Shown here: in pieces, positions 26,301 through 43,679 of the stretch
How the letters are laid out: every line of letters begins with the position of its first letter
How positions within the stretch are numbered: position 1 is the first letter of the stretch
Assembly (NCBI GenBank): GCA_016214605.1
Contig: JACROD010000005.1
Coordinates: 6,108-70,107 of the forward strand
DNA from: Candidatus Kaiserbacteria bacterium
GTDB lineage: Bacteria > Patescibacteriota > Minisyncoccia > Phycocordibacterales > UBA2100
Reading direction: 5' to 3'
Length of the DNA: 64,000 nucleotides
The notes under the pieces: model-generated
Databases searched by the model: none
Told to the model about the DNA's origin: nothing
Seen by the model: only the letters and a program-made list of their open reading frames with translations
Translations under genes and position numbers: made by a program

Positions 26301-29300
26301 TTCTGTCCGATCGAGAAGACGGTCGATGAGCTGTTGGTGACGGCTTCGAATAAGGAGCCGGTGCCCCAGGTGGTGAGCTTGCTGTATGGCGTGCTGGTGC
26401 CGATGGCGATATTGCCGGTCGATATCGTCGCCCCCGTACCAGAGAGGCCGGTGCCATAGATCAAGTTGCCGATGACGAGCTGATTGGACGCGGTCGCGCT
26501 CGGGACGGCCACGTCATTGCCGATCGCGATATTGTTGCTTCCGGTGGTGACCTGATCGCGTGAAGCGGTGATGGTGGACTGGCCGAGGAGGACGTTGCGG
26601 GCGCCGGTAGTAATGGCGTAGCCGGATTGATAGCCGAGGAGGGTGTTGTAGTCGGAGCCGGTGGTGAATCCTCGCCCTGCAGAAAAGCCAATGACCGTAC
26701 CCCCTTGATTACTATAGTTGGCGGTGCCGATCGCGGCTGAAGACCCGATAGCGACGGTACTGGTGGCTGACTGATTGAAATTGGAAGCCGAAGAACCGAC
26801 AGCGACGTTGCTGCTACCTGTAGTATTGGAAAGAAGAGCATTATAGCCACTGGCAGTATTGGAACTGCCGGTAGTGTTGAAGATGAGGGATCGCGCACCC
26901 AGAGCGGTGTTGGAACCGCCAGTGGTGTTGGACTGGAGCGTACTGTTGCCGCTCGCGGTGTTATTGGTACCTGTCGTATTAGAAAAGAGAGCGAGATAAC
27001 CGGTCGCAGTATTGATCTGACCTGTGGTATTGGAACTGAGCGCGTTGTATCCGACCGCGGTATTTGCTATCGCTGTGCCCGAAGTCGGCGTCGTGCCGAG
27101 CGCACCTTGACCGATGGCGACAGAAAGCCAGCTTGTCGAGGATGCACTCATCCAAGCGGCTGCAGCAGATGCACCGACAGCAAGAGATGTATTCGTCGTA
27201 CTCGCATACAGTACTGTGTTTCCGGCCTGCTTGTATCCTCCCGTTGTACCATCTGTGTTGATGAAGCCATTGACGTCGAGCGAGTAGCTCGGGGTGGTGT
27301 CATTGATACCGAGATTGGTCCCATCAAACGTAAGCGCTGTGCCGGATGTGATCCGCGTACCATCGAAGAAGTTCACGCCGTTGGTGACTTGGGTGCCGGT
27401 CGCGGTGCCGCCATTGGCGATTGGGAGAATGCCGGAGAGGTAATTGACCCCGATCGAGGTGGTCGCGATCACCATACCGTTTGCATCAGTGGCAAGGAGC
27501 TTGCTTGTGGTCGCCTTGAGCGCGAGCGTGTTCCAGATATTGGCCGAGGCAAGCTGTGATGTGGAGGATGCATAGAAGCCCATCTGATACCAGGTCGGTG
27601 TGGTAGTGGCGTTGGTCGATGTACCAAAGGTGGTGGCTATGGTCCAAGGCCAAGAGGTTCCGCTTGATGGCCAGGTGGTGCGGCACGTATCGCCGGTGAA
27701 GCAGATGGTGGTCGCTGCAAAGTTGGTCGAGGTAGCACCATTCTGACCGATGAGGAATACTGTACTCGATGAGTTGTTGACCGCCTCGAAGAGATTGGCA
27801 GTGCCCCAAGTGGTGAGCTTGCTGTATGGCGTGCTGGTGCCGATGGCGATATTGCCGGTCGATATCGTCGCCCCCGTACCAGAGAGGCCGGTGCCATAGA
27901 TCAAGTTGCCGATGACGAGCTGGTTGGAGAGTGTGGAGGATGCAATGGCCACGTCATTGCCGATGGCGATGTTATTGGAGCCTGTGGTGACTTGGTTTTG
28001 TGAGGCGGCGATGGTGGACTGGCCGAGGAGGACGTTGCGGGCACCGGTGGTGATGCCGTAGCCGGATTGGTAACCGAGGAGGGTGTTGTAATCGCTTCCG
28101 GTGGCGAAGTTGAAGCCGGCTTGCATGCCGACGACGGTGCCGCCCTGATTGGAGTAGTTGCCGTTGCCCTGGCCGGCATACGCACCGAAGGCAGTGGTGC
28201 TGGTGGCAGACCCGTTGTAGAACAGAGCATAGTAGCCATTGGCGGAGTTATTGGAGCCGGTGGTGTTATTGAAGAGCGCGTTGCTGCCGTTGGCGGTGTT
28301 GTACGAGCCGATATTTTTGTTCAGAGCATTCGTGCCGATGGCGGTATTCACGACACCGGTGGTATTAGAGGTGAGCGCATAGTAACCGATTGCAGTGTTG
28401 CCATAACCGATTGTATTGGCGGATAGACTTTGGATACCGATTGAGGTGTTTAATTGGCCGTTAGAACCGAGATGATCCGTGGGGATCGTTGCGAGCGCAC
28501 CGGAGCCGATGGCAATGTCATTCCAACTTGTCGACGACGCACTCATCCATGCGGCGGCTGCTGATGCACCAACAGCGAGAGATGTGTTGGTCGTGCTCGC
28601 ATACAGCACCGTATTCCCCGCCTGTTTGTATCCGCCCGTCGTGCCGTCGGTGTTGACGAAACCATTCACATCGAGAGTGTACGTAGGTGCCGTGAGCGAA
28701 CCGACGCCGAGCTTGCCCGCAAAGATCGAGTTGGCGGTCGAGGAAGTCGCGAGATACGCCGCGGCGGTCGGTGTCGATGTGGAAACGATGCGCGTACCGT
28801 CGAAAGCAGTAAGCATATGACTGCCGATCGAGCTTGCATTAGTGCCGCCATTCGCAATGCCGAGAATGCCCGAGAGGTAATTGACCCCGATACTCGTGGT
28901 CGCCGTCGGATTGCCCGAAGAGTCGAACGCAAAAATGGATGATGCCGGGCCCTTGAGGAGGTTCCAGCCGATTGAGGTGGTGGCGACGAGCTTTTGATTG
29001 GCGTCGAGCGCGAGAAGACTGCTTGCGGCGATACCAGTAAACCAGGTGTTGTTGGTGAATGTGGCGAGGCTCGTGGTGCTCTGGGAGAGATTGAGAAGCG
29101 CCGAGAAGGTCGAGGAAGCTTGCGCGATGAGACCGCCGGTAAAGGTGGAGGCGGTCGATGAAGTGGCGTTGAAGTACTGAGCTGATACGGCACCTTGGAC
29201 GTTGAGCTTGTCGGTCGGAGCACTGTTGCCGAGGCCGAGCTTGCCGTCTGCAGTGAGGACGGTCGAGAGCACACCATTGGCATCATAGATATCGATCAGG

Positions 29301-32300
29301 TTGGCTGATTGGCTTGCGGCAGCGGAGAGGACGAGGGTCGTGGTGGCGGCGGAGCCTGAGAGGATGGAAAATTTGGCATACGGAGTCGTGCTCGCACCGA
29401 CCACCGCCAGATCCGTGGTGGTAGCGAGGGTGACACGACCGATACTGTTGGTGGTCCAGCCGCCGCCGGTGCTCGCGCCACCGACCGAGATCGTACCGCA
29501 AGAGATATTGCCCGAACCATCGGTCTGCAGCGCCTGACCTCCCGTACAAGTAGTGACCGATCCGAGCGCGAGGGTACTGGTGAAGCGGCCGGTGCCAGAG
29601 ACGTCGAGTGTGTATGAGGGAGCATTGGTGCCGATGCCCACACGGCCGCTTCCCTGTTGTACTACTAATTGTGTACCGCCGATAGTGAAGCCTTGGCCGC
29701 TGGCGATGGTGGATGTACCAGAGGTCTGCGTGCTGTTGAAGAGTGGCGCGCCAAAGGTCGTACCGTTGAAGGTAAGTGCGGTGCCGGAGGTGATCCGCGT
29801 ACCGTCAAAGAAATTCACACCGTTGGTGACCTGTGTGCCGGTCGCGGTGCCGCCATTGGCGATCGGCAAGATACCACTCAAATAGTTGACTCCGATGGTG
29901 GTAGTGGCGATGACCATACCATTCACATCCGTGGCGAGGAGCTTGCTGGTGGTGGCATTGAGATTGAGTGTGCCCAGTGATGCAAGCTGCGAAAAGAGAT
30001 TTGTGGAGCTTGCAGTGGTGGCAAAGGTGTTGGTGGTTGTGGCGTTGCCCCAGATGAATACATTGCCCGATACGGCGAAGGTGGCGGAGGGAGCGGTGGT
30101 GGCAATGCCGAAGCTCCCTGCTGACGTAAGTCGTGCACCTTCGGTGAGGGTGCCGGAGCGAAGTGTGGCGAAGGCGAGATCGCCGTTCCCGGTTTGTGGT
30201 ACGCCGCCGGTGCCTCCCTGGAAGATGCTGAAGATGGATGCGGTCGTGGTGCCGGTGTTGTGGACGATGTCGTCGGTCTTGAATGCGAGCGAGACCTTGG
30301 TGGAAGAGGTGGCCGAGCCGAAGTTGGAGAGGGAGAAGGGTGTGGTGCTGGCTGAGGTGTTGTCGGAGACTTCGAGCTTGGTCTGTGGAGTGGTGGTGCC
30401 GATGCCGACGTTGCCGGAGTTGTTGGAATAGATGGCGTTGGAAGCTCCCAGTGTCCACGGCGTGTTGATCGTGAGTGCCGAGCCGCCGACCAGGAAGCCT
30501 GCAGTACCGGTGAAGGTCACGCCGGTGCCGGCGGAGACACTGGAAGTGGCGACGGAGGTGAGGCCGTTGGTGCCGTTGCCATACAGAAGCTGACTGCTCG
30601 TGAAGGTGGATTGACCGGTGCCGCCGTTGGCGATACCGAGGATGCCGGTGAGGTAGTTGGTGCCGATTGATGTGGTCGCGACGACCGCGCCGCTTGCATT
30701 GGTGCTGAGGATGGCGTTGGCAGGGCCGATGAGGTAATTGGTACCGATCGTGGTGGTCGCCGTCGGATTACCCGAAGAGTCGAACGCGAAAATGGATGAC
30801 GCCGGACCCTTGAGGAGGTTCCAGCCGATGGTGGTAGATGCAACGACCGAGCCGTTGGCGTTCGTGCTGAGGATACTGTTGGTGAGCGAAGTAATCGCAA
30901 AGGCGGTGGTAGTAGCGCGGGTCAAGGTGGCGTTGCCGGAGAAGACGTTGGTGCCGCTCCAGGTATTGGCGTCAGACAGCAATGTCGTCGAAGCGCCCGT
31001 GAAGGTCTGCTGGGTCTTCCAGTAGTCAGTCGAGGTGGTGGAGAATGCGAGACCTTGGTTTTGTGAGAGGAAGTACGAGGCGGAGGTGGTGGCCCAGCGG
31101 GTCTGCGTGGTCTCCCAGTATGCTGTGGAGGTCGTGGAGAAGAAGTTGTTGGCGGTTTTCCAGTAGTCGCTCGATGTCGTCGAGAAGAAATATCCCTTAT
31201 TGAGGGTATTGAGATAGGTATTCACCAGCGTGTCACTGTAGTACTTGTTGGTGCTACCCTGCGCGAGACCGTCGGTCGTGGTAGCGTACCACGACAAGAG
31301 TGAAAGTTTGGCATCGAGCGCACTCTGCAGGTCGGTTTGGTTGCTCAAAGTGCCTGTAATAGAGCCCCAGATTGCGCTGTTGATGCCGAGGGAGGTGGTG
31401 GAGACGTAGTCGAAGGTGCCGCCGCTGTTGCCCATGAGGAGCTTGCCGTATGTGGGGGCGCTGGATGTGCCGGTACCGCCGTTTGCAATCGAAAGTACAT
31501 TGGTAACATCACTCGCCAGGTTTACAAACCCCGTTGATATCACGCCGGCGGTTGCTTTTAGCAAACCATTCAGAGAGCCGATGGAGAGGCTATTCACCGA
31601 GAGCCCGCCGATGTTTGCCGCTGTGGCATAAAGATTCGTACTTGAGGCAGTCGTTGCAAAGAAATTCGTTGCGGTTGCACTCGTGGTTGTAAGGTTCGTT
31701 ATCGTACCGGTCGCCGCATTAAAAAGCGACGCAAAGAGCGATGTCGTAGTTGCCGATGTGATCGTCGCAGTCCCCAAAATGGCGTCCGTTGAGAAAAGAT
31801 GCGTCGAAGAGGAAATCGTTGAGAAAAACGACGTCGTTGTCGCCGACTGACCGGTCGCGCTTACAAAAGTGATTCCCCCGATATTGCTAACCGAGAACAC
31901 CGTCGCACCTGTCGAAGACGCGAGCGAAAACAGTGTAGAGGTGGTATCAGTCGACGACGCAACGATAGCAAGCCGCGCCGTCGGCGTGGTCGTACCGATA
32001 CCAAGGTTACCCGAGGACGCATTGTATGAAAAATTACTCACGCCATCAAACACTCCTCCGTTGTTGAATTGGATTTGTCCGCTTGATCCGCCAGGCGTAC
32101 CGCCTCCACCGCCAGTCGTTATACAGTTACCATTCACCGAGAAACATCCTCCTGAGAGAGCGATACCATTGGCAAATGTCGAGGTTGCCGTCGTCGACGA
32201 TATGGACAAAACCCCTGCCCCGAGACCGCCTGAAAACGTCGATGTGCCGCTATATGTGCTTTTCAAAAGTCCTGTGAGTGTACCACCGGAGACCGCAAGA

Positions 32301-33577
32301 TACTGACCGCTTAAGTCAGGCAGGTCGGCGGATGTGAGGCCTGTGACGCCATTGACATGTACGTTCGTTAGGAGTGTTCCATTCAGCGAATCGATATGCT
32401 GCGTCAATGCGATCTGATTTGCGACACCACCGCTTGCAGGCGGCGCCACGGGGGTAAATTGCGAGACCTGTAGCGACTGAGCAAATTGCTGGAGGCGCCT
32501 ATCAAGGTCATTCGTCGTTATACCGCTTGTCGCCGGCAGCGAATATGCAGTGTTGTTGTAGACATTATGGGTCTCATTGTTCGTCGTGTTATAGGTGTTG
32601 TTATAGGTGTTGTTTACAACGCTCGACGGCGCCATAACACCACCACCGAATGATGCGAATCCTCCCGATGCAACAGTGGCAGGAGGCGACGAAAGAGCAG
32701 ATTTGGCTGTTGGCGTAATGTGCACATACACAGATCCTTGCTGTCCGACATCCCAGCCAAATACTCGCAAAATATTAGCAAAGAAGCCACCGATACTACT
32801 CACCACATGAGAAGGAATACTTTCTTCGATCGCCGCAACATTCTGAACGCGACTCGGCGATGTATTGTTGGTGAGGGATGCATGTCGCGTTATCGCGTTT
32901 TGCGATGATCCGATAAAAGCCATGAAAACGAAGACAATAGCCACCGTCGCAAAGACTCCTTTCAGAGACACAAGAGAGCGCATCGAGGACATAGAATACG
33001 CAGCCGGGTCCGACACTGATCTGGGGGCACGACTCGCCAGAGTTTTTGTTTCCTCCCCAGCGACCAAGGGAGATTCTTTCACGAGCTTTTCTTGTACAGG
33101 CGACAGAATCCTTTCGGTAATACCAAGGGCTTGGGGATTAAACTGGAGAATCTCATATACAGAAACCGGACGCGGTGAGACACCCTTTGCAGCAAAGAAG
33201 TCCGAGACGGATTCTTTATCGACAAGCCAGAGACCGTCTTGTACGACACCCCGGATTTTCTTCTGGCGACAAAGACGTGAAATGTGATCATTCGTCACTC
33301 CAAAAAGAGCTGCCGCATCCTTGGACGAGATGTATTTTGCTACGCGATGTATGACCTCCCGCACAGAAACCGGACGCGGTGAGACACCCTTTGCAGCAAA
33401 GAAGTCCGAGACGGATTCTTTATCGACAAGCCAAAGACCGTCTTGTACGACACCCCGGATTTTCTTCTGGCGACAAAGACGTGAAATGTGATCATTCGTC
33501 ACTCCAAAAAGAGCTGCCGCATCCTTGGACGAGATGTATTTTATTTGGTAGTCGTTTCTTTGGATTGTGTCGCCCAT
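17309..33577 (-). CDS. Giant 5422-aa membrane-anchored surface protein. N- to C-terminal architecture: two identical wHTH-like (excisionase/MerR-like) repeats, a TM helix, S/T-rich segments, multiple families of tail-fibre-like repeats (ANGGT motif), a triplicated Gly-rich module, an LVIVD beta-propeller, a DUF5011-like Ig domain, and a Ser/Thr-rich C-terminal tail.
   Basis: A single uninterrupted 16,269-nt ORF with a TGA stop. N-terminus KYISSKDAAALFGVTNDHISRLCRQKKIRGVVQDGLWLVDKESVSDFF appears twice. Hydrophobic segment VFATVAIVFVFMAFIG. Repeats NYLSGILPIANGGTATGTQVTNGVNFFDGTRITSGTALTF occur at least 6 times. The LVIVD-like repeats include FRIIDISDPTNPV, FIIVDISNPAAPV and LIIYDVSNP. The C-terminal segment APIISVNGNNPASIQVGSVYSDLGATITG...THTIRYFATDASGVQGSATRTVVV is DUF5011-like. 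Confidence 0.85.
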   Translation of the reverse strand: MGDTIQRNDYQIKYISSKDAAALFGVTNDHISRLCRQKKIRGVVQDGLWLVDKESVSDFFAAKGVSPRPVSVREVIHRVAKYISSKDAAALFGVTNDHISRLCRQKKIRGVVQDGLWLVDKESVSDFFAAKGVSPRPVSVYEILQFNPQALGITERILSPVQEKLVKESPLVAGEETKTLASRAPRSVSDPAAYSMSSMRSLVSLKGVFATVAIVFVFMAFIGSSQNAITRHASLTNNTSPSRVQNVAAIEESIPSHVVSSIGGFFANILRVFGWDVGQQGSVYVHITPTAKSALSSPPATVASGGFASFGGGVMAPSSVVNNTYNNTYNTTNNETHNVYNNTAYSLPATSGITTNDLDRRLQQFAQSLQVSQFTPVAPPASGGVANQIALTQHIDSLNGTLLTNVHVNGVTGLTSADLPDLSGQYLAVSGGTLTGLLKSTYSGTSTFSGGLGAGVLSISSTTATSTFANGIALSGGCFSVNGNCITTGGGGGTPGGSSGQIQFNNGGVFDGVSNFSYNASSGNLGIGTTTPTARLAIVASSTDTTSTLFSLASSTGATVFSVSNIGGITFVSATGQSATTTSFFSTISSSTHLFSTDAILGTATITSATTTSLFASLFNAATGTITNLTTTSATATNFFATTASSTNLYATAANIGGLSVNSLSIGSLNGLLKATAGVISTGFVNLASDVTNVLSIANGGTGTSSAPTYGKLLMGNSGGTFDYVSTTSLGINSAIWGSITGTLSNQTDLQSALDAKLSLLSWYATTTDGLAQGSTNKYYSDTLVNTYLNTLNKGYFFSTTSSDYWKTANNFFSTTSTAYWETTQTRWATTSASYFLSQNQGLAFSTTSTDYWKTQQTFTGASTTLLSDANTWSGTNVFSGNATLTRATTTAFAITSLTNSILSTNANGSVVASTTIGWNLLKGPASSIFAFDSSGNPTATTTIGTNYLIGPANAILSTNASGAVVATTSIGTNYLTGILGIANGGTGQSTFTSSQLLYGNGTNGLTSVATSSVSAGTGVTFTGTAGFLVGGSALTINTPWTLGASNAIYSNNSGNVGIGTTTPQTKLEVSDNTSASTTPFSLSNFGSATSSTKVSLAFKTDDIVHNTGTTTASIFSIFQGGTGGVPQTGNGDLAFATLRSGTLTEGARLTSAGSFGIATTAPSATFAVSGNVFIWGNATTTNTFATTASSTNLFSQLASLGTLNLNATTSKLLATDVNGMVIATTTIGVNYLSGILPIANGGTATGTQVTNGVNFFDGTRITSGTALTFNGTTFGAPLFNSTQTSGTSTIASGQGFTIGGTQLVVQQGSGRVGIGTNAPSYTLDVSGTGRFTSTLALGSVTTCTGGQALQTDGSGNISCGTISVGGASTGGGWTTNSIGRVTLATTTDLAVVGASTTPYAKFSILSGSAATTTLVLSAAASQSANLIDIYDANGVLSTVLTADGKLGLGNSAPTDKLNVQGAVSAQYFNATSSTASTFTGGLIAQASSTFSALLNLSQSTTSLATFTNNTWFTGIAASSLLALDANQKLVATTSIGWNLLKGPASSIFAFDSSGNPTATTSIGVNYLSGILGIANGGTNASSIGSHMLTAFDGTRIVSTSTPTAAAYLATSSTANSIFAGKLGVGSLTAPTYTLDVNGFVNTDGTTGGYKQAGNTVLYASTTNTSLAVGASAAAAWMSASSTSWNDIAIGSGALATIPTDHLGSNGQLNTSIGIQSLSANTIGYGNTAIGYYALTSNTTGVVNTAIGTNALNKNIGSYNTANGSNALFNNTTGSNNSANGYYALFYNGSATSTTAFGAYAGQGNGNYSNQGGTVVGMQAGFNFATGSDYNTLLGYQSGYGITTGARNVLLGQSTIAASQNQVTTGSNNIAIGNDVAIASSTLSNQLVIGNLIYGTGLSGTGATISTGNIAIGTSTPYSKLTTWGTANLFEAVNNSSSTVFLIGQNGATSTNFAATTICFTGDTCRTTWPSSGTSWPWTIATTFGTSTNATTTPTWYQMGFYASSTSQLASANIWNTLALKATTSKLLATDANGMVIATTSIGVNYLSGILPIANGGTATGTQVTNGVNFFDGTRITSGTALTFDGTNLGINDTTPSYSLDVNGFINTDGTTGGYKQAGNTVLYASTTNTSLAVGASAAAAWMSASSTSWLSVAIGQGALGTTPTSGTAIANTAVGYNALSSNTTGQINTATGYLALFSNTTGTNNTASGNSTLQSNTTGGSNTALGARSLIFNTTGSSNTASGYNALLSNTTGSSNVAVGSSASNFNQSATSTVAIGSSAAIGTANYSNQGGTVIGFSAGRGFTTGSDYNTLLGYQSGYAITTGARNVLLGQSTITASRDQVTTGSNNIAIGNDVAVPSATASNQLVIGNLIYGTGLSGTGATISTGNIAIGTSTPYSKLTTWGTGSLFEAVTNSSSTVFSIGQNGATTTNFAITNLASAILSTNANGSVVATSSIGVNYLSGILPIANGGTATGTQVTNGVNFFDGTRITSGTALTFNGTTFGAPLFNSTQTSGTSTIAAGQGFTIGTSQFVLQQGSGNVGIGTSTPGSLLSVAGDVYASGFYNTSGTTGGYKIDGNLILQASSTLNSFFIGQSAGNTSTTGLQNYGLGTFALSAITTGDFNNAMGRAAMNALTTGSSNTAMGNESLRLNTTGSDNVAIGANASRLNISATSSVAIGSSAGNAAANFNNQGGTYVGYLAGYGAQTNSDFNTLFGYQSGRGITTGSNNIWIGTATSSAAIANLTTGSQNILIGNNISFPSATASGQLNIGNIIYGTGITGTGSTVSSGNIGIGTTTPYSKLTTWGTANLFEAVNNSSSTVFLIGQNGATSTNLFSTTASSTNLFSQTASLGILNLRATTSKLLATDANGMVIATTSIGVNYLTGILPIANGGTNNSTGGTTNGVMYFDGTKFTSDGGLTYTPSSSFFVNDLATFASGFTSQGLSTFDGNIVANASSTFSAPLNIAQSSTTLATFSGSTWLTNLTASTLLALDANKKIVSTTTIGWNLLKGPASSIFAFDSSGNPTATSTIGLNYLKGGNNLLLSTDSSGNVVGTTSVGVNYLSGILPIANGGTATGTQVTNGVNFFDGTRITSGTAITWNGTTFAASNISTGGTLGVTGLSTLGGFISTASSTITSGLFSANGGASTTNFTATGLVILGNATTTNLFSTTASSTNLFSQLASLGTLNLKATTSKLLATDANGMVIATTSIGVNYLSGILPIANGGTATGTQVTNGVNFFDGTRITSGTALTFDGTNLGVGTTSPQERLTVMGGNIFQTGGSGNSGQLYNPALLGGVDLGIGVGESLFGGQDMTVVGNTLYLVTASTTANTGCSTSDMSDCELRIFDIATGTPRFLGGADFGPTATAHGNGIAVAGQYAYVTVSTVAGTCNSTTATGCEFRIYDISNPSAPLFKGGLNFAISGINVVVSGHYAYVTLNSVSGNDFRIIDISDPTNPVTVGGLDLGTAGIGLRVQGNYAYIAQGSVTGNDFIIVDISNPAAPVTVGGMDLGTNGRAIAVSGNYAYVGKDTGGVTGNLIIYDVSNPTAIATTSVISAAAAQTVQVSGRYMYLGVSSLAGSCNSTTITGCDFRVYDISDPYNPIAVGGVDENANVQGLVVSGHSAFVGLSSISGNDLVVHDITGADLQSLAVGTLDAGSLQLRNDLTSQGHIFADTFNAGAGGIYSTGGIFSYVASSSATTPIAGLFMGGNVGVGTTTPWGSLSLAGTAGQTNPLFVIASSTGTSLFSIAGDTGLATLSGGFLSTASSTITSGLFSMNGGASTTNFTATGLTILGNATTTNLFSTTASSTNLFAQTASLGILNIPSITNAILSTNSSGQVVATTSIGTNYLTGVLAIANGGTNNSSAYTAGSVIFSNGTSLTQDNSNFFWDDTNNRFGIGTTSPNSAIEISGSDAGTTLNTFTSGTTLSISNRNTTANNFSTLAFRTQDLTNGGATSSAQIVGINTAHTAGASSGALAFLTLNAGSLGEAMRILPTNLVGIGITAPTSMLHVSGTQPTSASSGNGTAATSILNIAGITGGVTTDTGTRTGGAGSALTLTLGTGGTATAADVLSTGGTGGTFTMTGGVGGAASVAGTGNNTGGAGSAFTWTGGIGGAANGDTTGNNTGGTGGAFTWVAGTGGAATNANGTPGTRTGGVGGAITLRAGAGGVGTDTGGNGGGLSLSSGLAAAATSSAGGAVTITGAAGGTTGSGGAGGAITLTGGLAGGDNSVARAGGAIAITAGASKGNNAGGAITLTAGASSASSTLAGGAISLTGGLGGTNTNTGTALGGTGSGFAFTLGTGGTATAADVLSTGGTGGTFTMTGGVGGAASVAGTGNNTGGAGSPFTWTGGTGGAANGNTTGNNTGGIGGAFTWTAGTGGAATNANGTPGTRTGGAGGAVTINAGAGGAGTDTGGSGGLLTISGGTAAAATSSAGGGVSILGDVGTSIGSGGAGGALTLTAGAAAGDNSVARAGGAVTVTAGASKGQNAGGAITLTTGAASASSTLAGGLLTLTTGAGGTNTNTGTATGGAGGGHTFSMGAGGTATAADVLSTGGAGGTFTMTGGVGGAASVAGTGNNTGGAGSAFTWTAGTGGAASGNTTGVNTAGAGGAVALSAGTGGAATNANATPGTRTGGAGGALTLNAGIGGTGTDVAGVGGAMIFKTAQTTSLTEQMRITNTGLVGIGTTTPFWKLTVASSTGPQIALTDGTASSNAWTFRSISNSFYIATSTATATSTVAALAINSNGAATFGNNLTVNGTASLQQATTTTFAITSITNSILSTNANGSVVASTTIGWNLLKGPASSIFAFDASGNPIATTTIGTNYLIGPANAILSTNASGAVVATTSIGVNYLTGILGIANGGTATGTQVTNGVNFFDGTRITSGTALTFTGTNLGIGTTTPMGLLTIATSSATAANAAMKIQSNSGTTTVTFFTSTTTFLTTSGVAATAAQASNYMIIGNGSTAASVSIVNGGLCVDSDGWCFASTTGRVSSVTSTTGGSDVAEMYASHDTLVPGNIVATAGNVAIKAAVTDTKHHIIGIVSTAPGLTLGFNPDGTFDTTDNHYPVALVGRVPVLVNLDNGPIAIGDRIALSTSTPGVGMKADPMDPSVAIALQAYQTGATSTAILAFVNLQDINVSAIQAIASSTFATSSQTAIIDGPFAGVSQMLHDTLSLALASVSGIAGTGVRELGGAVHGSLAAFDKVFAKEIYADNITAQKVTAVQQMCVGTTCVTEAQLQALLASAAVASGGGGSGAAGATGGSTGGVSSGATTPTATTATGSVAPIISVNGNNPASIQVGSVYSDLGATITGPTSALNLGISAIVDGGATTTIDQIHIDTSVTGTHTIRYFATDASGVQGSATRTVVVYDPTTTTSPAEETASGTTTINTTTSSTDTSTSTPSTIDTSTSSSTAPVDSTTTSTSQ
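19560..21700 (-). repeat. Triplicated ~720-bp module encoding a Gly/Ala/Thr-rich (PGRS-like) ~240-aa repeat inside the giant gene.
   Basis: The protein repeat TGNNTGGAGSAFTWTGGxGGAANGxTTGNNTGGxGGAFTWxAGTGGAATNANGTPGTRTGG occurs 3 times. DNA landmarks recur at ~19690, ~20420 and ~21135. Confidence 0.75.
23790..31500 (-). repeat. Array of diverged to near-identical intragenic repeats (units ~130 bp to ~1.4 kb) encoding ANGGT-type tail-fibre-like repeats.
   Basis: The ~130-bp unit ...gtgatccgcgtaccgtcgaagaagttcacaccgttggtgacctg.gtgccggtcgc.gtgccgcc.ttggcgatcgg.a.gat.cc... recurs at ~18900, 23810, 24290, 24830, 26080, 27320 and 29760. The 26361..26480 segment is 100% identical to 27805..27924, with ~90% identity over the adjoining ~200 bp. 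19020..19290 is ~85% identical to 30640..30900. Confidence 0.8.
33159..33542 (-). repeat. Tandem direct duplication (two copies of ~180 bp with a 204-bp period and one mismatch) at the 5' end of the giant gene. It encodes the two wHTH-like repeats.
   Basis: Copy 1 is 33159..33338 and copy 2 is 33363..33542. The only difference is g/a (ccagagacc vs ccaaagacc). Confidence 0.9.
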
Positions 33578-34119
33578 ATTTTTTTATTTCAAGCCACATG
33601 TCGCCGAGACGACATAACGATTCAATGTTCAAATTGTACGACGTGTTCGCTTGAATGAAGTCGCATTTTTTATTTCGTGTGGATAAGTCCCGTAAAAGAT
33701 TTTTCCGTGCCATTCACTCTTCTGATACCAAAAGTCACACCGGATATTTTTGTTTTCGTTCGTCAAACACAAGGAGATTTTTCACATACAAAGTCGCGGG
33801 GCAAGATCGTATATTGAGGAGCAAGAATACAAGGCTCTAATGGCTTAATTCCTCACTACCTATTAATCGACAGCACCTTTTAGCAAAGAGAAAGATTTAT
33901 CTTACCCAAACACAAAGAAAGATCGTATCCGCCACAAAAAATCAATCTGACTAGAAACATTTTCACATTACCCTGATCTTTGGCGATCTAAATCCAAAAA
34001 TTATAAAACCCCTGGTATGGATAAAAAATCAAAAAACTATCGATTATGTGGTATTTATATACTCGTTATGCCGAGATTTACTGTATTTACGTATATCGGA
34101 TACCCGATATTTATTAAAA

Positions 34120-35031
34120 TCATCTATGACCAGCAGGGTTTTCGTAGTTTTCCGGCTCAGGCGGACGAACGGGACCCGCGTATGGCTTGATACTAATGTA
34201 AACAGAACCACGCACCCCTGCGGTGTGCGCCCAAGCAAGGCCCGAGGCAGATTCGACTGCCGCGACAAGACGCCCCGGATCGGCGTCTTGAATCTGTACA
34301 AAGGTTTCTTTGAGCGCCTCTTTGCCACCAAGTGCATATCGGGGGTCAATCACAGAGTACAAGCTAGACGCGATCATAACGGCGATACTGAGCGCAAAAG
34401 CTTTCTGGGTGAAAACCGCAAAAGAGGAGGATAAATATGTGGGTTTATAGCTATTTCCGATCTGCCTTATGTGGCCAGTACGCTTTCCCTCATCTTGTTT
34501 GCGCACCACCAACTCAAGCTGATCTCGAATACTTCTTACTGACGAAAGATCGTCCCAAGATTTTGATAAAAACTGCGTAGTATCAGGTGTACTAATCGCC
34601 CTTTTCGAAGAATTCTGACGCACGAAAGACGGATGTTCCGGTGGATTAGTCTGAATAGCAGGATTTTGCGGCCAATAAGAATATCGGAAAATATCCTTTT
34701 CATTCAATGTGTTTTGACTTTTTGAAATCATCGGCTCAACCATTGTAAGAGAGGTGCGCCGCTCATCCTGGAAGCTGGCAAGCGCCCGGTGATATTCGTT
34801 CCGGCGTTGCTCAGAAAGTGTTTGACGACTCTTGCTTTTCGAATACTCTTGCGTGGTCAGGAACGCCTGAAATGAGTTTTTGTCGACATACCACAGTTTG
34901 CCGATGCGTTTCCCACACACTTTTCCGTCACGGCAAAGACGCCCGACATAGTCGCGAGTGAATCCGGATGATTCTGCCGCCTCACGCGCAGAAACATAAT
35001 GCATTCCGTCAAAAAATATTTCGTCACTCAT
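34120..35031 (-). CDS. Membrane protein (303 aa). It has one N-terminal wHTH-like module paralogous to the giant-protein N-terminus, a long linker, a TM helix and a short extracytoplasmic C-terminus.
   Basis: YVSAREAAESSGFTRDYVGRLCRDGKVCGKRIGKLWYVDKNSFQAFL shares the pattern Y[IV]S..A.....G...DY[IV]..L.R.G.[IV]......G.LW.VD..S...F with the giant protein. The hydrophobic segment is FALSIAVMIASSLYSVI. Confidence 0.6.
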   Translation of the reverse strand: MSDEIFFDGMHYVSAREAAESSGFTRDYVGRLCRDGKVCGKRIGKLWYVDKNSFQAFLTTQEYSKSKSRQTLSEQRRNEYHRALASFQDERRTSLTMVEPMISKSQNTLNEKDIFRYSYWPQNPAIQTNPPEHPSFVRQNSSKRAISTPDTTQFLSKSWDDLSSVRSIRDQLELVVRKQDEGKRTGHIRQIGNSYKPTYLSSSFAVFTQKAFALSIAVMIASSLYSVIDPRYALGGKEALKETFVQIQDADPGRLVAAVESASGLAWAHTAGVRGSVYISIKPYAGPVRPPEPENYENPAGHR

Positions 35032-35352
35032 GAATTGTTTTGTTTGTCTTCCATATTTTTATGACACGACTTAACTACTATTTTACTAGCTAAATCGGAT
35101 ATACGAACAAACAAAAAGACATGTTCTGTGGATAAGAAAATTCGGTATTTTTAAAGAGAACAGTGTGAGAAAGTTTACCGTGTGCAAAGGATTCAAATCA
35201 AAATAACGATCTCCGTCCGGCACAAAAACTACCCATGTCACAACCCAAACACATACCTCCAAAGAAAAGATGATCTATGGGGGCACGTTCAAGATGACAA
35301 CTGAGGGACGGTGGAGTCTTCTCGATCGCGGGTACGCTCGTACCCACCAAAT

Positions 35353-36339
35353 TCACTCCCCGCGATTGTAGTCCAATTCCCGTGTCAAAACCTTCTCAAT
35401 CCTTGAAATAAAGCCATCAAAGGCTGTTGACGCTTCTGCTACAAGCGTCGATTTTTCCGTATTTGAGACTACTGAGTTCGCCTCTGTTCCTCCGATGTCA
35501 AAACCAGCCACAGGCACAGGAGTTCTTTTTTGAAATGAGAAAAATCCAACAGAAATTACCAGAACTACCACTAAAGCAAACGCCGGAATTATGGCTTTAT
35601 GTATAGTCTTTTCGTGTGTATTTTGCTCTTCTGATCGCTCCGGTCCATAGGTCCTCCTCGTAGGTGCGGTCTGCAGACGGATTTCCTTCCGTGGGTACCG
35701 CTCAACCACTCGGATCGGAACTGCATGTTCCTCATCGGTCCCGACACCCTCATTTTCTTCTTCCAATTCCTCCTCGCTGATGGATGGTATGAGATCCCCT
35801 TCATCCGTCGTATACGTAAGTAGTTCATCCTGAAAATACGGATTCTTCGGTGCTACCTCCGTGGGAGTGTGCCTCTGTGCTATGCCGACCGACTGGACCT
35901 GAACGGCGGCCAAGAGAGAGTCTTTCTCTTGCTTATGTGCCAACAATGCGCTCTTATCGACGTACCAACGATTACCAACCTGACGCGACATTACCTTGCC
36001 TCCACGGGCCAACTGGCCCACATAATCCTGATTATATCCTGTTATCTTTGAAGCTCGGCTTGCCGAGATATATTCCTTTCCGTCCAAGTGTACGAATGAA
36101 TCTGCATCTGGAAAAGTGTTTACATGATCTGTCGAGACCTTTTGCTTAACCTCTTCCGATTTGTTCTTGTATGCCAAAAGAGAGTCCATCGAGACGTACC
36201 AAAGACCCCCAATCCTGCGTGCATCAATGAGTGATCCGCGAGACAATTGACCGATATAATCCTGAGCATAGCCTGTCATCTCTGAAGCTCGTTTCGACGA
36301 GATATACTTGCCTTCATCGAGAATAATATCCGTGGACAT
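35353..36339 (-). CDS. Membrane protein (~329 aa from M24 of the track ORF). It has two tandem wHTH-like modules, an acidic linker, a TM helix and a short extracytoplasmic C-terminus.
   Basis: The track ORF is 35353..36408. The likely start is MSTDIILDEGKYISSKRASEMTGYAQDYIGQLSRG... at 36339. The second module is YISASRASKITGYNQDYVGQLARGGKVMSRQVGNRWYVDKSALLAH. The acidic run is EEELEEENEG. The TM segment is IIPAFALVVVLVISVGFFSF. Confidence 0.6.
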   Translation of the reverse strand: MSTDIILDEGKYISSKRASEMTGYAQDYIGQLSRGSLIDARRIGGLWYVSMDSLLAYKNKSEEVKQKVSTDHVNTFPDADSFVHLDGKEYISASRASKITGYNQDYVGQLARGGKVMSRQVGNRWYVDKSALLAHKQEKDSLLAAVQVQSVGIAQRHTPTEVAPKNPYFQDELLTYTTDEGDLIPSISEEELEEENEGVGTDEEHAVPIRVVERYPRKEIRLQTAPTRRTYGPERSEEQNTHEKTIHKAIIPAFALVVVLVISVGFFSFQKRTPVPVAGFDIGGTEANSVVSNTEKSTLVAEASTAFDGFISRIEKVLTRELDYNRGE

Positions 36340-36509
36340 GCACTGCAGTATATACGAGAAAGGTCCGCACGTCATACAGGCGAGATAACCCTGTGGATAG
36401 CACATCAAGATATCGGGACCTAGGCGAGATCCGAGGCACTCACATGTCTCGTTATGTCAGCCGCTACGATTCTAAGACCATTAAAAAATCGTCCTTCCGA
36501 GATATTATT

Positions 36510-37955
36510 TTACGCGCCGAGAGCAACCTTTATCATTGTCCGCAGCACCTCCGGATCACCGGCACCACGGAGACTCTTCATGCATTGCCCGACGAGATAT
36601 TCCAGCGTAGAGAGCTTGCCCGAGCGGTACTCGGCGACGACAGCGGGATTATTCGATATGACCTCCTGGACGATCGCCTTGATCTGGTCTTCCGAGATAT
36701 CAGTCTTGAGTAGGTTCTTCTCCTTGGCGATCACTTCCGGATCTTTCTTCTCGTCTATGGCCATCTGGATGAGGTCTTTTGCCGATCGAGACGATATCTT
36801 CTTGTCCGCCAGCATATCTACTATCGTCTTGAAATTGCGTGCCGATATCGGAATCTCGTGATTTGAATCTGTATCTTGTGTACCGGTGTCTCGGATTATT
36901 TTTACGAGGTCGTTGGCGATATAATTGGACGCAAGCACGATCTTTGGATCACCTGCCGGATACGTCGATATAGCCTCCTCGAGGAAGCTACCGAGACGTC
37001 CGTCGCGGACGTACGCGTCTGCATCTTCTAGCTTGATACCGAGTGTCACATAACGCTGCCTGCGCACCCAAGGCAGCTCCGGGAGACTGGCCCGGAGCTT
37101 CTCTGTAGCAAACTCCGGCATCTCGGAGATCTTGAGCGAAGGCAGGTCGGGATCAGGAAAATAACGGTAATCAGCGCTTCCCTCCTTAACCCTTTGTGCA
37201 AAGGTAGATTGCTTACCCTCGTCCCATCCGCGTGTTTCCTGCAAGACCTGACCCCCTCCCTCTAGGACTCCAATCTGGCGATCTATCTCATATGCCACGG
37301 CACGCTCCATGGCCCTAAAAGAATTGAGATTCTTGACCTCGACCTTGGTACCAAAGGTACTCGTCTTGGATACCGAGATATTTGCCTCCACACGCATCTC
37401 GCCCTTTTCCATATTGGCATTACTAGCACCGAGATAGCGCAGGAGAAGCTGTAATTCTCGGGCAAACGCACCTGCCTGTGCCGCACTCGAGATGACCGGA
37501 TCGGTCACCAGCTCCATCAGTGGGACTCCGGCGCGATTGTAGTCGATGAGTGTGACACCGGTAGCCTCGTCGTGTATGGAGCTCGCCGTGTCTTCTTCCA
37601 GGTGCACGCGCGTGATAGCCACACCGTGGAGCTCGCCACCCGACACGAGAGGGAACTCGTACTGGCTGATCTGATACCCCTTGGGGAGGTCCGGGTAGAA
37701 GTAATTCTTGCGGTCAAACTCGCTGTAGTCGGCAAGCTTGGATCCTAGAGCTAGGCCCACGCGCAATACATGCTTCACCGCCTCGCGATTGATCACCGGG
37801 AGCGTCCCTGGGTGTGCGAGGCAGACCGGGCAGATATTTACATTGGCGCGTGTCTCGTCGGGGTCGTTCTTGGACGTGCAAAACATTTTGGTCTGGGTGC
37901 GGAGCTCCGCATGGACCTCCATTCCGATCGTTACTTTGTATTCTTCTGCAACCAT
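36510..37955 (-). CDS. gatB: Asp-tRNA(Asn)/Glu-tRNA(Gln) amidotransferase subunit B.
   Basis: 481 aa. The GatB N-terminus IGMEVHAELRTQTKMFCTS and C-terminal GatB/YqeY-like helical domain are present. Confidence 0.9.
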   Translation of the reverse strand: MVAEEYKVTIGMEVHAELRTQTKMFCTSKNDPDETRANVNICPVCLAHPGTLPVINREAVKHVLRVGLALGSKLADYSEFDRKNYFYPDLPKGYQISQYEFPLVSGGELHGVAITRVHLEEDTASSIHDEATGVTLIDYNRAGVPLMELVTDPVISSAAQAGAFARELQLLLRYLGASNANMEKGEMRVEANISVSKTSTFGTKVEVKNLNSFRAMERAVAYEIDRQIGVLEGGGQVLQETRGWDEGKQSTFAQRVKEGSADYRYFPDPDLPSLKISEMPEFATEKLRASLPELPWVRRQRYVTLGIKLEDADAYVRDGRLGSFLEEAISTYPAGDPKIVLASNYIANDLVKIIRDTGTQDTDSNHEIPISARNFKTIVDMLADKKISSRSAKDLIQMAIDEKKDPEVIAKEKNLLKTDISEDQIKAIVQEVISNNPAVVAEYRSGKLSTLEYLVGQCMKSLRGAGDPEVLRTMIKVALGA

Positions 37956-38289: not shown

Positions 38290-40830
38290 TTATTCTTTGA
38301 TCTTCCATTCACCGGATGCGAGAAGTGGTTCTGCTTTTTTATATTTCATCTCACGATCTTCGTCTCCGTTGGTGATCGTGACATGATCATTACGTCCGTA
38401 TTCTTTGCGTATGCCTTCCCTGCCTGTCCCGATTATCGACATGACTGCCTTGTGGATAACCTCCGACTCTTTGACCGCTGACGCCTGTACCGAGATCGGC
38501 GCGACCCCCACCATGACTCCTATCGGAGCCTCGGCCCCGAGCTGGGTCATCACCTGATCGGCATAGGTCGCCTCCATGGTCTGGAACATCTGGAGACCCT
38601 CTCTCTTGTACTCGACAAGAGGATCACGCTGTCCGTAGGCACGGAGATTGACGCTGCTGCGCAAGTACTCCATGGCTTCCAAATGCTCGACCCAGAGGTA
38701 GTCGACGACGCGCAGGAGTATGCGGCGAGTGTGCGTATAAAAGGCCTCCCCGAGTTCTTGCTTCTTCTTGTTGATCGTCTCGGTGAATGTCTCGTCCATC
38801 TCGGCAAGCCTCGAGAGCTCCGCATCGAGTATGGCATTGTCGCCGGTGAGAACCATGCGCCGACGCGCATAGATACTTTGGCGCTGGATGTTGAGCACAT
38901 CATCGTATGAAAGCACGTGCTTACGTGAATCAAAGTTGATCTCTTCGATACGTGTCTGCGCTTTTTCGAGTGAACGCGTGATCATGGAATTGTAGATCGG
39001 CTCGTCTTCGGGGATCTTGAAGGTCCCCATCACGCGCTTGATCATGTCGGAAGCAAAAATGCGCATGAGCGAATCCTCAAGTGATACGTAGAATTGTGTC
39101 TCGCCCGGATCACCCTGGCGGCCGGAGCGCCCACGGAGCTGGTTGTCGATGCGTCGAGCTTCGTGCCGCTCGGTACCCAGGACAAAGAGCCCTCCCGCAT
39201 CCTTCACTTGACTCGCCTCTTCTTCGGTGGCGGGATTACCGCCGAGCTTGATGTCGACACCGCGGCCGGCTACATTGGTCGCGATCGTGACCGCCCCCGA
39301 TTTCCCCGCCTGGGCGATGATCTCCCCTTCGCGCTCGTGGTTCTTGGCATTGAGTACCTCGTGCGGGATCCCCTCCTGCTTGAAGTGAGCGCTGAGGATC
39401 TCGTTCTTCTCGACCGAGACCGTGCCTACAAGGACCGGCTGACCCTTCTCATGGAGCTCTTTGATGCGCTTGGCGATGGCCATGTATTTGCCGTGTTCGG
39501 TCTGGAAGATGAGATCTTCGCTGTCGATACGCCTGGGGACTTTGTTGGTCGGGACGATGACCGTATTAAGGCCATAAACCTTGTAGAATTCCTCGGATGA
39601 TGTCGCTGCGGTGCCGGTCATGCCCGCGAGCTTGGCATAGAGACGGAAATAATTTTGAAAGGTGATCGAAGCAAACGTGCGCGATTCTTGCTGGATCGTG
39701 ACGCCTTCCTTGGCTTCGATAGCCTGGTGCAGACCTTCGGACCATCGGCGGCCCGGCTGCATGCGGCCCGTGAATTCATCCACGATCACGATCTCGCCTC
39801 CGCGAACTACGTAGTCTTTGTCGCGATGAAAGAGCGCCTTGGCGCGCACAGCGGTCTCCAAATGATGCACGTATTTGATCCCGGCATCGGTGTAGATATT
39901 GTCGATCTCGAGTATTTTCTCGGCCTTCTCGATACCCGCGTCGGAGAGGGCGATCTGACGGTGTTTCTCGTCGACCGAGAAATCCGTCTCGGATTCCAGA
40001 GTGTCCGCGATCTGGGCAAAACGTGTATAGAAATCATCCGCATTGGCGGTCGGTGCCGAGATAATGAGCGGGGTGCGTGCCTCGTCGATAAGGATCGAGT
40101 CGATCTCGTCGACGATCGCAAAATTGTATTCTCGCTGGCGTAGGAGTGCCGGATCGTACTCGAGATTATCGCGCAAGTAGTCGAAGCCGAATTCGTTGTT
40201 GGTGCCGTAGGTGATGTCGGCCGCATAGGCCTCACGACGACTACAGGGGCGCAGAAAGTCGTTGGCGACCTTGAAGCTCCCTGTCTCATCGCGATCCTTG
40301 TCTTCTTCTACCGCGACCTCGGCGGGGACATGTGCAGGATCGTAGATAAAGGAAGATTCGTGATTGATGACCGCGGTCGAGAGGCCGAGTGCATAATAGA
40401 TCTGACCCATCCAGGCCGCATCGCGGCGCGAGAGATAGTCATTGACCGTGACAATATGGACGCCCTTGCCGGTAAGCGCATTGAGATATGCAGGCAAGGT
40501 GGCGACGAGGGTCTTGCCTTCGCCGGTGCGCATCTCGGCAATATCGCCATGGTGCAGGATCATACCGCCGAGGATCTGGACATCGAAATGCCGCTGACCG
40601 AGGGTCCGTCGAGAAGCCTCCCGAACTGCCGCAAAGGCCTCTGGAGCCAGATCGTCGAGGGTTTCTCCTGCGGCGAGACGCTCTTTGAATAGGACGGTCT
40701 TTTGCTTGAGGGCTTCGTCGGAAAGCACCTGAAAATCAGGCTCTAGAGCGTTGACCTGCGCGATAATAGGCTCCGCACGCTTGAGAGCTGCGGCATTGTC
40801 GTCCCCCATCCAACGATTCCAAAACGCCAT
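38290..40830 (-). CDS. secA: Preprotein translocase ATPase SecA (short form, no C-terminal zinc finger).
   Basis: 846 aa. DEAD-like motor motifs (MRTGEGKTLVATLP, DEIDSILIDEARTPLIIS) and the HKAVMSIIGTGR.. C-terminal region are present. Confidence 0.95.
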   Translation of the reverse strand: MAFWNRWMGDDNAAALKRAEPIIAQVNALEPDFQVLSDEALKQKTVLFKERLAAGETLDDLAPEAFAAVREASRRTLGQRHFDVQILGGMILHHGDIAEMRTGEGKTLVATLPAYLNALTGKGVHIVTVNDYLSRRDAAWMGQIYYALGLSTAVINHESSFIYDPAHVPAEVAVEEDKDRDETGSFKVANDFLRPCSRREAYAADITYGTNNEFGFDYLRDNLEYDPALLRQREYNFAIVDEIDSILIDEARTPLIISAPTANADDFYTRFAQIADTLESETDFSVDEKHRQIALSDAGIEKAEKILEIDNIYTDAGIKYVHHLETAVRAKALFHRDKDYVVRGGEIVIVDEFTGRMQPGRRWSEGLHQAIEAKEGVTIQQESRTFASITFQNYFRLYAKLAGMTGTAATSSEEFYKVYGLNTVIVPTNKVPRRIDSEDLIFQTEHGKYMAIAKRIKELHEKGQPVLVGTVSVEKNEILSAHFKQEGIPHEVLNAKNHEREGEIIAQAGKSGAVTIATNVAGRGVDIKLGGNPATEEEASQVKDAGGLFVLGTERHEARRIDNQLRGRSGRQGDPGETQFYVSLEDSLMRIFASDMIKRVMGTFKIPEDEPIYNSMITRSLEKAQTRIEEINFDSRKHVLSYDDVLNIQRQSIYARRRMVLTGDNAILDAELSRLAEMDETFTETINKKKQELGEAFYTHTRRILLRVVDYLWVEHLEAMEYLRSSVNLRAYGQRDPLVEYKREGLQMFQTMEATYADQVMTQLGAEAPIGVMVGVAPISVQASAVKESEVIHKAVMSIIGTGREGIRKEYGRNDHVTITNGDEDREMKYKKAEPLLASGEWKIKE

Positions 40831-42421: not shown

Positions 42422-42515
42422 CCATAAATAGGGACAAATGCGCCGCAAGCACTATGCTTGCGGCGCATTTCTTTTTTGCCATAACTCCTCGCCTATTCGG
42501 ACATGCCACCAACGC

Positions 42516-42543
42516 AAAAACAGCCCCTTCCGGGGCTGTTTTT
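42516..42543. terminator. Bidirectional intrinsic terminator: A5-cagcccc-ttcc-ggggctg-T5.
   Basis: A 7-bp GC-rich stem flanked by an A-run and a T-run. It lies 95 nt after the guaB stop (+) and 9 nt after the stop of the minus-strand micro-ORF. Confidence 0.75.
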
Positions 42544-42551
42544 GAGGAGCG

Positions 42552-43260: not shown

Positions 43261-43286
43261 AAAAAACCACCTTGCGGTGGTTTTTT
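43261..43286. terminator. Bidirectional intrinsic terminator: A6-ccacc-ttgc-ggtgg-T6.
   Basis: A perfect short GC stem with flanking A6 and T6 runs, located inside the long non-coding region 42627..43679. Confidence 0.6.
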
Positions 43287-43669: not shown

Positions 43670-43679
43670 AAACCCGGCC

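Follow-up and report, generated by a model that had tools for sequence, protein, structure and literature searches.

We analysed a 64,000-nucleotide stretch of a Candidatus Kaiserbacteria genome (GenBank assembly GCA_016214605.1, contig JACROD010000005.1, positions 6,108 to 70,107 of the forward strand), referred to here as the window, focusing on three adjacent genes that each encode a putative DNA-binding module of the helix-turn-helix (HTH) type followed by a single transmembrane (TM) helix. All three open reading frames (ORFs) are present on the minus strand where an earlier note on this sequence had placed them, and in order of transcription secA and gatB are followed by p351, p303 and a giant ORF of 5,422 amino acids (aa):

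38290..40830, minus strand: secA
36510..37955, minus strand: gatB
35353..36339, minus strand: p351, 'D-type', 328 aa from the ATG at 36339; two HTH_17 domains, acidic linker, K/R-rich stretch, TM helix and 56-aa tail
34120..35031, minus strand: p303, a short 'G-type' paralogue; one HTH_17 domain, long helix, disordered linker, TM helix and 74-aa tail
17309..33577, minus strand: the giant gene, 'G-type', 5,422 aa; two HTH_17 domains, linker, one TM helix and a fibre- or spike-like ectodomain of ~5,190 aa

The start of p351 needed revision. The earlier note had begun the gene at TTG 36408; the true start is probably ATG 36339 (MSTDIILDEG, 328 aa), as homologues all begin MSDEI... A -10 hexamer, TATACT, sits 7 nucleotides (nt) upstream of this ATG. 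The longer, TTG-initiated ORF adds 23 residues that were found in no homologue.

A hidden Markov model (HMM) of the module, scanned against the 38 window genes, detects five copies of ~55 aa, confined to the giant, p303 and p351. Nine columns (Y, S, A, G, D, L, R, W and V) are invariant in the five-way alignment, so the common motif first noted across the three genes survives proper alignment, and the p303 and giant modules match each other by BLASTP at E=2e-10. Kyte-Doolittle analysis finds one hydrophobic segment per protein (giant aa 199-230, p303 aa 203-229 and p351 aa 267-295), in agreement with the single TM helix expected of each; AlphaFold2 (AF2) models two of them as helices. The modules and TM helices lie at the following positions:

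36154-36324, minus strand: p351, first HTH_17 (HMM, aa 29-85)
35920-36090, minus strand: p351, second HTH_17 (HMM, aa 107-163)
35524-35610, minus strand: p351, TM helix
34843-35016, minus strand: p303, HTH_17 (HMM, aa 6-63)
34345-34425, minus strand: p303, TM helix
33386..33550, minus strand: giant, HTH_17 copy 1, aa 10-64 (HTH_17 profile and module HMM)
33182..33340, minus strand: giant, HTH_17 copy 2, aa 80-132 (module HMM)
32888..32983, minus strand: giant, its sole strongly hydrophobic segment, aa 199-230, read as a signal-anchor TM helix (Kyte-Doolittle)

Profile searches and predicted structures both bear out the proposal that the module is a winged HTH (wHTH) of the excisionase/MerR superfamily. 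Pfam HTH_17 (PF12728, gathering cut-off 27 bits) matches two stretches of the giant (E=3.5e-14, 53.2 bits) and two of p351 (E=7.3e-7, 29.8 bits), while NCBIfam TIGR01764, the excisionase family DNA-binding domain (cut-off 28.8 bits), matches the giant above its cut-off at 36.1 bits, p303 at 14.8 bits and p351 not at all. The NCBI entry identical to p303 is named 'helix-turn-helix domain-containing protein [Candidatus Kaiserbacteria bacterium]'. Based on an alignment of p351 homologues, AF2 predicts two separate wHTH domains in p351 (strand-strand-helix-helix-strand-strand-helix) with a predicted local distance difference test score (pLDDT) of ~90, followed by a disordered acidic linker, the TM helix and a low-confidence, largely helical tail. 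The same wHTH domain (E-E-H-H-E-E-H) is predicted for p303 with pLDDT >90 over aa 11-60. The chain then continues as a long helix over aa 51-94, a disordered stretch of ~100 residues and a TM helix (203-228).

In a Foldseek comparison to the PDB, the confident matches were all DNA-binding relatives: TraN, Xis of mycobacteriophage Pukovnik, BldC, RacA (5i44), GlnR and CarH. The top match of the D protein is TraN of pIP501 (4pm3; E=1.3e-3, probability 1.0), and Pukovnik Xis (4j2n) and BldC (6ama/6amk) superpose with a root-mean-square deviation of 1.7-1.9 Å and a TM-score, normalised to the target, of 0.67-0.71. A sequence profile searched against PDB sequences gave no significant match, the best again being TraN (E=0.055-0.12). 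The recognition-helix pattern DY[IV]..L.R is common to three subfamilies of HTH-TM genes, in all of which the promoter box described below accompanies these genes, and recognition helix and wing are at least 80% conserved across 78 genomes (for example, QDYIGQLAR / RDYIARLCR and G.(L/R)WYV).

Beyond the HTH, G-type N-termini share a following helix (Q.EY...R..L...R..EY), a TM helix with a conserved FGTYA.VDP and a juxtamembrane motif, G.V.V...P. Since p303 has all of these features, its tail carrying the juxtamembrane motif as GSVY.I.P, it is a stub paralogue of the giant class. The 56-aa tail of p351 ends in a different conserved motif, E..L...L.Y.R. The two HTH copies of the giant form an in-frame tandem duplication of 204 bp (33159-33338 / 33363-33542) with 99-100% DNA identity, so the duplication must have happened very recently or be an artefact of assembly. 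In other genomes, double-HTH versions with diverged copies are present.

The locus formed by these three genes is not peculiar to this genome but recurs in conserved form throughout Kaiserbacteria/Paceibacteria (Patescibacteria). Using a p351-family profile, we identified 129 relatives in species-representative genomes and kept 80 loci, all belonging to Kaiserbacteria, Paceibacterota or Parcubacteria, in which ORFs were called anew and scanned with the module HMM. The conserved order is secA, gatB, a D-type gene (2×HTH_17+TM, ~320 aa) and a G-type gene (HTH_17+TM+ectodomain). The D-type gene is single-copy among housekeeping genes: gatB lies no more than two genes upstream of it in 77/77 loci, and the next gene downstream is an HTH_17+TM (G-type) gene in 68/75. 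G-type proteins carry one or two HTHs, and some loci contain two G-type genes, like p303 and the giant in the window. An exhaustive HMMER search placed the D family at 419 clusters at 50% identity (E<=1e-30); among the best 150 hits nearly all are full-length alignments of 295-353 aa, with three shorter or partial.

A second, more distant HTH_17+TM family (P0011-P0018; 354-374 aa) was found in an AT-rich lineage. Its gene lies directly downstream of a gene for a 207-aa Peptidase_M50 protein, in the order rpmB-M50-HTH_TM, and in one contig (L084) a 1,383-aa gene follows the HTH_TM gene. The Peptidase_M50 genes of this family are:

L081, 5255-5878: Peptidase_M50 gene
L084, 1270-1893: Peptidase_M50 gene
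L085, 625-1248: Peptidase_M50 gene

An IS200-like Y1 transposase-like gene (~230-250 aa; Y1_Tnp, 27 bits), located at 16496..17197 in the window, recurs beside or inside the gatB-D-G locus in many genomes (for example, L028, L047, L058, L062 and L063), with varying position and orientation.

The same N-terminal module, which the earlier note had suggested looking for on other ectodomains, does occur in related genomes on ectodomains that differ greatly in size. Across the G-type proteins of the 80 loci, complete lengths range from 242 to 2,673 aa and incomplete proteins reach >3,383 aa. Within the window the very different sizes of the outside parts are confirmed, with corrected values of 74 aa (p303), 56 aa (p351) and ~5,190 aa (giant) in place of the first estimates of ~70, ~80 and ~5200 aa, respectively. 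The giant ectodomain contains LVIVD repeats (E=1.7e-28) and Bact_surface_Ig-like regions and matches a PHROG tail-spike family (E=1.4e-22). Pfam recognised almost nothing in the ectodomains of the 80 loci apart from surface Ig-like domains and, in one G-type homologue, a Peptidase_S74 tail-fibre chaperone domain. Given its LVIVD, surface Ig-like and tail-spike-like regions and the Peptidase_S74 domain in one homologue, the giant ectodomain appears to be an extracellular fibre.

The placement of the HTH modules relative to the membrane is best constrained in the D family, in which the 15 residues before the TM helix contain a mean of 3.99 K/R compared to 1.16 after it, and the N-terminal side is the K/R-richer one in 71/78 proteins. 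By the positive-inside rule, this bias argues strongly for an N-in topology, with the HTH domains therefore facing the cytoplasm. N-in topology had been suggested for all three proteins, and for the giant type this rule does not settle it: here N-in is indicated by the presence of only one TM helix, the extracellular character of the C-terminal part, and an N-terminal region that is folded, rich in charge and devoid of a signal peptide.

We next describe the DNA upstream of these genes, where the earlier note had suggested looking for conserved motifs and where such motifs were found. A box reading (T)TATCCACA is present in sense orientation upstream of all three HTH-TM genes, 39-41 nt before a -10-like hexamer. 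More generally, the 8-mer TATCCMCA occurs 11 times in the window compared to 3.0 expected, and six of these copies are in sense orientation upstream of genes, namely the three HTH-TM genes and three other genes for large secreted or surface proteins; none of the six lies before a housekeeping gene. The six boxes are:

36392..36399, minus strand: TATCCACA, upstream of p351, 39 nt before the -10 TATACT (36347-36352)
35127..35134, minus strand: (T)TATCCACA, upstream of p303, 41 nt before the -10 TAAAAT (35080-35085)
33678..33685, minus strand: (T)TATCCACA, upstream of the giant, 39 nt before the -10-like TACAAT (33633-33638)
14094..14101, minus strand: TATCCCCA, upstream of a 1,241-aa TIG/Big/beta-helix surface protein gene (10351..14076)
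10299..10306, minus strand: TATCCCCA, upstream of a 1,414-aa PG_binding/Fn3_assoc surface protein gene (6012..10256)
2217..2224, minus strand: TATCCCCA, upstream of a Big_7/DUF4838 surface protein gene (1..2136, cut by the window end)

The p351 promoter has a weaker copy, TTATCTCG, one helical turn downstream of the box, and the p303 promoter has a second copy, TATCCGAT, at +34, its -10 lying within a conserved element, CTAGTAAAATAGTAGTTAAGTCG. The 1,241-aa surface protein gene may belong to the same regulon as the HTH-TM genes. Its promoter and that of the 1,414-aa gene are paralogous (TATCCCCA-N30-33-GGTAyTnT, with a common GAGACATC) and the two proteins begin MHNKQ/MHNKQV, suggesting a duplicated, co-regulated pair of surface-protein genes.

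Across the 80 loci, the core box together with a -10 at the right spacing lies upstream of 35/76 D genes (46%) and 57/85 G genes (67%). Among the other genes of these loci the figure is 2/399 (0.5%), and one of the two codes for a 1,887-aa protein with a signal peptide. The reverse-oriented box was never seen upstream of HTH genes across the loci. The family consensus is yTTATCCMCA, with about one-third of strong boxes reading CCCCA instead of CCACA (C at position 7). To locate extra copies (at least 6 of 8 matches), 64 sequences were anchored on the strong box: these gather only at +12, +23 and +34, in 13, 19 and 22 sequences, respectively, compared to ~1 per offset elsewhere. The element is thus a direct-repeat array with helical phasing that spans about -62 to -21.

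D promoters follow the layout [T/A]ATCCMCA-N38-40-GTATAMT-N6-7-ATG, which implies leaderless mRNAs; judging from this spacing, D-type transcripts are probably leaderless in the window and in most of 78 homologous loci. The second HTH_17+TM family of the AT-rich lineage has the same leaderless layout, TATCCACA-N37-39-(-10)-ATG. In D promoters (L002-L060; ~36400-36460 in the window) the sequences CCGAGAT / ATCTCGG recur on either side of the box, often in inverted pairs, which might fold into hairpins or be recognised by some further factor. G promoters carry a conserved sequence around the -10, CTAGTAAAATAyTAGATAArTCG, found in the window at 35066..35089 upstream of p303 and also in L003-L065. 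It contains a palindrome, CTAGTA-N3-TACTAG, that overlaps the -10 and is followed, at the start of the 5' untranslated region, by a short hairpin of variable sequence (for example, TCGGGCATCCGA); this region could be a second operator or an mRNA-stability element. No Rfam family was detected in 33400-36600 nor anywhere else in the window.

We also scanned metagenomes for the pattern TATCCACA-N38-40-TATACT-N6-8-ATG, which has ~17 specified bases and for which chance matches are expected in a large collection. There were at least 121 matches; among those listed, 96 lacked a useful ORF (≥100 aa, or ≥40 aa when cut by a contig end), as chance would give. One D-type gene was recovered among them, and the long ORFs consisted of 8 copies of one XRE/antitoxin-like family, two genes resembling dnaQ and a mixture of small regulators.

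Several established systems resemble parts of this arrangement. Transmembrane transcription regulators (TTRs), defined by a DNA-binding domain and at least one TM region, are a recognised class, and the supplement of a TTR survey lists 151 HTH_17-containing members and counts RodZ under HTH_25 (PMC10269533). All three proteins combine a recognised DNA-binding domain with a TM segment and so fall under the formal definition. The TTRs ToxR, TcpP and CadC are likewise built from a DNA-binding domain at a cytoplasmic N-terminus, a single TM helix and a domain on the outside, so the earlier comparison to ToxR/CadC holds for architecture. It fails for kinship: ToxR and CadC contain an OmpR-type Trans_reg_C domain, for which the three proteins had no match even at E<=10, and the outside part is a ~55-74-aa stub or a multi-thousand-residue fibre instead of a small sensor. 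RodZ also has an N-terminal HTH, a single TM helix and an outside domain in N-in orientation; its XRE-type HTH (HTH_25), which binds MreB, and its DUF4115 outside domain were not detected in the three proteins. No MerR profile was among their matches at E<=10, and p303, although it has a long helix after the HTH (aa 51-94), lacks the effector domain of MerR family regulators. Because these defining domains are absent, we do not assign the proteins to the ToxR/CadC, MerR or RodZ families.

Other likenesses concern the module itself. BldC of Streptomyces binds as four protomers, arranged head-to-tail on direct repeats that follow one another at one helical turn (PMC5859096). BldC and lambda/Pukovnik Xis share the fold of the modules, and the BldC repeat spacing matches the 0/+12/+23/+34 arrays; however, both are soluble proteins of ~55-70 aa, whereas here the module is fused to a helix, linker and TM helix and its repeat binding is putative, and the site recognised by BldC (AATT-N4-C) bears no relation to TTATCCMCA. 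In TraN, two tandem wHTH domains occupy neighbouring major grooves; the protein acts as a repressor and also controls its own expression (PMC6158623). Like the D protein, TraN of pIP501 (4pm3/4p0y) has two excisionase-like wHTH domains in one chain, but it is a cytosolic plasmid protein of 122-149 aa whose domains pack as an internal dimer, whereas those of the D protein are joined by a helix and flexible linker and anchored to the membrane. RacA and Noc of Bacillus subtilis tether DNA to the membrane or the cell pole. In RacA, a MerR-like wHTH precedes a coiled coil, and the shared concept is DNA held at the envelope. DivIVA brings RacA to the pole, and Noc relies on an amphipathic helix; unlike the HTH-TM proteins, neither is an integral membrane protein and neither has an ectodomain.

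The suggestion that this is not a described system therefore stands in part: the combination of HTH and TM helix is already catalogued as a class, while no description was found of the Patescibacteria family, the locus or the giant-fibre fusion. In full-text literature on HTH_17/excisionase membrane proteins, Patescibacteria regulators and giant Candidate Phyla Radiation (CPR) proteins, we found no description of the family, locus or promoter element, nor of any giant surface adhesin with a DNA-binding domain as fusion partner. The same holds for the conserved pairing of D and G genes and for its occurrence across Patescibacteria. The proteins would be an HTH_17 variant of the TTR class.

Our preferred reading, to which we assign a probability of roughly 0.45, is that the D and G proteins are membrane-tethered, N-in HTH_17 regulators of a surface-protein regulon that bind the phased repeats at their own promoters. 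Each chain would present one or two wHTH modules at the inner membrane face, and more per complex if the fibres are trimeric like tail spikes. There, D and G proteins would hold specific DNA and regulate transcription of the regulon, the likeliest targets being the phased direct TTATCCMCA repeats at their own promoters and at other large surface-protein genes. Binding could be head-to-tail, as in BldC or Xis, or by tandem domains, as in TraN, and the state of the surface fibre would be fed back to fibre synthesis. The analysis itself establishes what the domains are and how they fold, the one TM helix of each protein, the N-in orientation of the D family, the synteny, the size of the family and the phased repeats specific to these promoters. 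DNA binding by the modules, the identity of the bound site, the regulatory output and any interaction between D and G proteins are what we infer. The functions put forward in the earlier note, a coupling of attachment to transcription or a tethering of DNA, likewise have the rank of hypotheses.

Several observations weigh against this reading. The HTH_17 match of p303 (E=6.3e-5, 23.6 bits) is just under the 27-bit gathering cut-off, G-type proteins have a neutral to slightly reversed K/R bias (1.11 before compared to 1.47 after the TM helix), and the D protein has an outside part of only ~55 aa, unusually short for a sensor. Whether the box carries A or C does not covary detectably with HTH residues, the maximum mutual information being below the 95% permutation level, and D- and G-promoter variants disagree within genomes. 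The box is the near-universal DnaA-box consensus TTATCCACA, for which a chance match is improbable, and DnaA may be its binder in a layout like that of oriC. DnaA oligomer arrays at oriC consist of a strong box followed by weaker copies in the same orientation ~11 bp apart. As binder of the box, we weight the HTH modules slightly above DnaA.

It is accordingly possible, although we consider it doubtful, that the repeats are true DnaA boxes from which DnaA(-ATP) would oligomerise, starting at the strong box, towards the -35/-10 and tie expression to the cell cycle, and that the HTH-TM proteins are not regulators but DNA-membrane tethers or architectural proteins like RacA or Noc. Chromosomal DNA, perhaps DnaA-box-rich or origin-proximal, would then be held at the envelope or beneath the surface fibre. 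The consensus yTTATCCMCA equals the DnaA box and matches the 9-mer TTATNCACA (the window reads cTTATCCACA for the giant and p303 and gCTATCCACA for p351), the 0/+12/+23/+34 arrays have a strong anchor and weaker followers in one orientation at 11-12-bp spacing, and the box is unchanged between GC-rich Kaiserbacteria and the AT-rich lineage, as expected of a universally conserved binder. This explanation would also fit a D gene that is single-copy among housekeeping genes and almost without an ectodomain, the presence of RacA among the structural neighbours, and the box before two different dnaQ-like genes among the metagenome matches listed. On the other hand, about one-third of strong boxes read CCCCA instead of CCACA, a position that DnaA in model organisms reads strictly. 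The element also differs from oriC arrays in being set at a constant spacing to the -10 of particular surface-protein and HTH-TM genes, and it is absent from 397/399 other genes in the loci. A bolder reading strikes us as improbable: giant host-attachment fibres of ultrasmall episymbiotic bacteria, with their own DNA-binding domain at the cytoplasmic end, would join a universal double-HTH partner in docking on DnaA-box-like arrays and so link an attachment organelle to the chromosome, physically or by regulation. It could work in three conceivable ways. The HTH might be set free in a Notch-like manner or in step with export, given that in the sister family the gene adjoins one for a site-2 protease. 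The nascent chain might exert feedback in cis, in which the HTH, translated first from the 16-kb gene, would sit on its own promoter. Or the proteins might compete with DnaA, so that attachment at the surface would be coupled to replication and the cell cycle.

Two further explanations we consider quite unlikely. In the first, the HTH modules would bind protein and not DNA, like the RodZ HTH with MreB or the excisionase-like TorI with TorR, and would serve to anchor the fibres or the D protein to something in the cytoplasm, for instance the cytoskeleton or the division or secretion machinery. An N-terminal HTH, one TM helix and an outside part are the RodZ architecture, the module net charge is only +1 to +2.5, and a conserved protein partner would account equally well for the very high conservation of the surface. 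However, Pfam gave no HTH_25/XRE or DUF4115 match in the three proteins, the close structural neighbours are all DNA binders and no conserved cytoskeletal gene occurs in the neighbourhood of the loci. The position that we take, from an alignment by eye, to be equivalent to the base-contacting Arg of BldC is moreover R or Q in every module class.

In the second, put at similarly long odds, the proteins would be latent transcription factors freed by regulated intramembrane proteolysis, with a site-2 protease acting perhaps after an outside or signal-peptidase-like cut, so that one regulator molecule would be released per exported or damaged fibre. The gene of the second HTH_17-TM family lies directly downstream of its Peptidase_M50 gene in three independent contigs, the protease carries HExxH and LDG motifs, and G-type TM helices have conserved helix-breaking residues (FGTYA.VDP) at their outer end. 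However, neither the window nor any one of the 80 Kaiserbacteria loci contains an M50 gene, the two genes may be neighbours simply through synteny within that lineage (L28-M50-HTH) and no cleavage site is demonstrable from sequence.

Three other candidates were rejected. We do not read the box as the -35 of an alternative sigma factor, as 39-41 nt to the -10 is too far; a mobile-element excisionase is disfavoured by synteny with secA and gatB in 77/77 genomes; and an oriC at the locus is disfavoured, there being no dnaA gene or gene-orientation switch and the skew peak near 32 kb being compositional.

Patescibacteria have small genomes with few regulators, and the regulation of their surface, host attachment and cell cycle has been described as completely unknown (PMC11665869). 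A widespread HTH-TM family and a gene-specific phased box provide concrete, testable candidates for such regulation, and the family stands out for a DNA-binding module that is anchored in the membrane and that one class of paralogues also fuses to fibres of several thousand residues.

Additional features were observed elsewhere in the window. GC skew is strongly positive (+0.18 to +0.24) over 24000..32000, the repeat-rich half of the giant gene, and the cumulative-skew maximum near 32 kb results from the composition of that gene (T/S/G/A-rich repeats) and not from a replication terminus. In a region of ~1.26 kb (42422..43680), neither a convincing ORF nor an Rfam match was seen; within it lies a sense box, GTTATCCACA, at 42756-42763 on the minus strand with TAATAA ~42 nt later, which could be the promoter of an unannotated small gene or RNA. 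Lastly, a gene for a 23S rRNA-intervening-sequence protein (PF05635, E=4e-37) lies at 4698..5063, between two transketolase halves.

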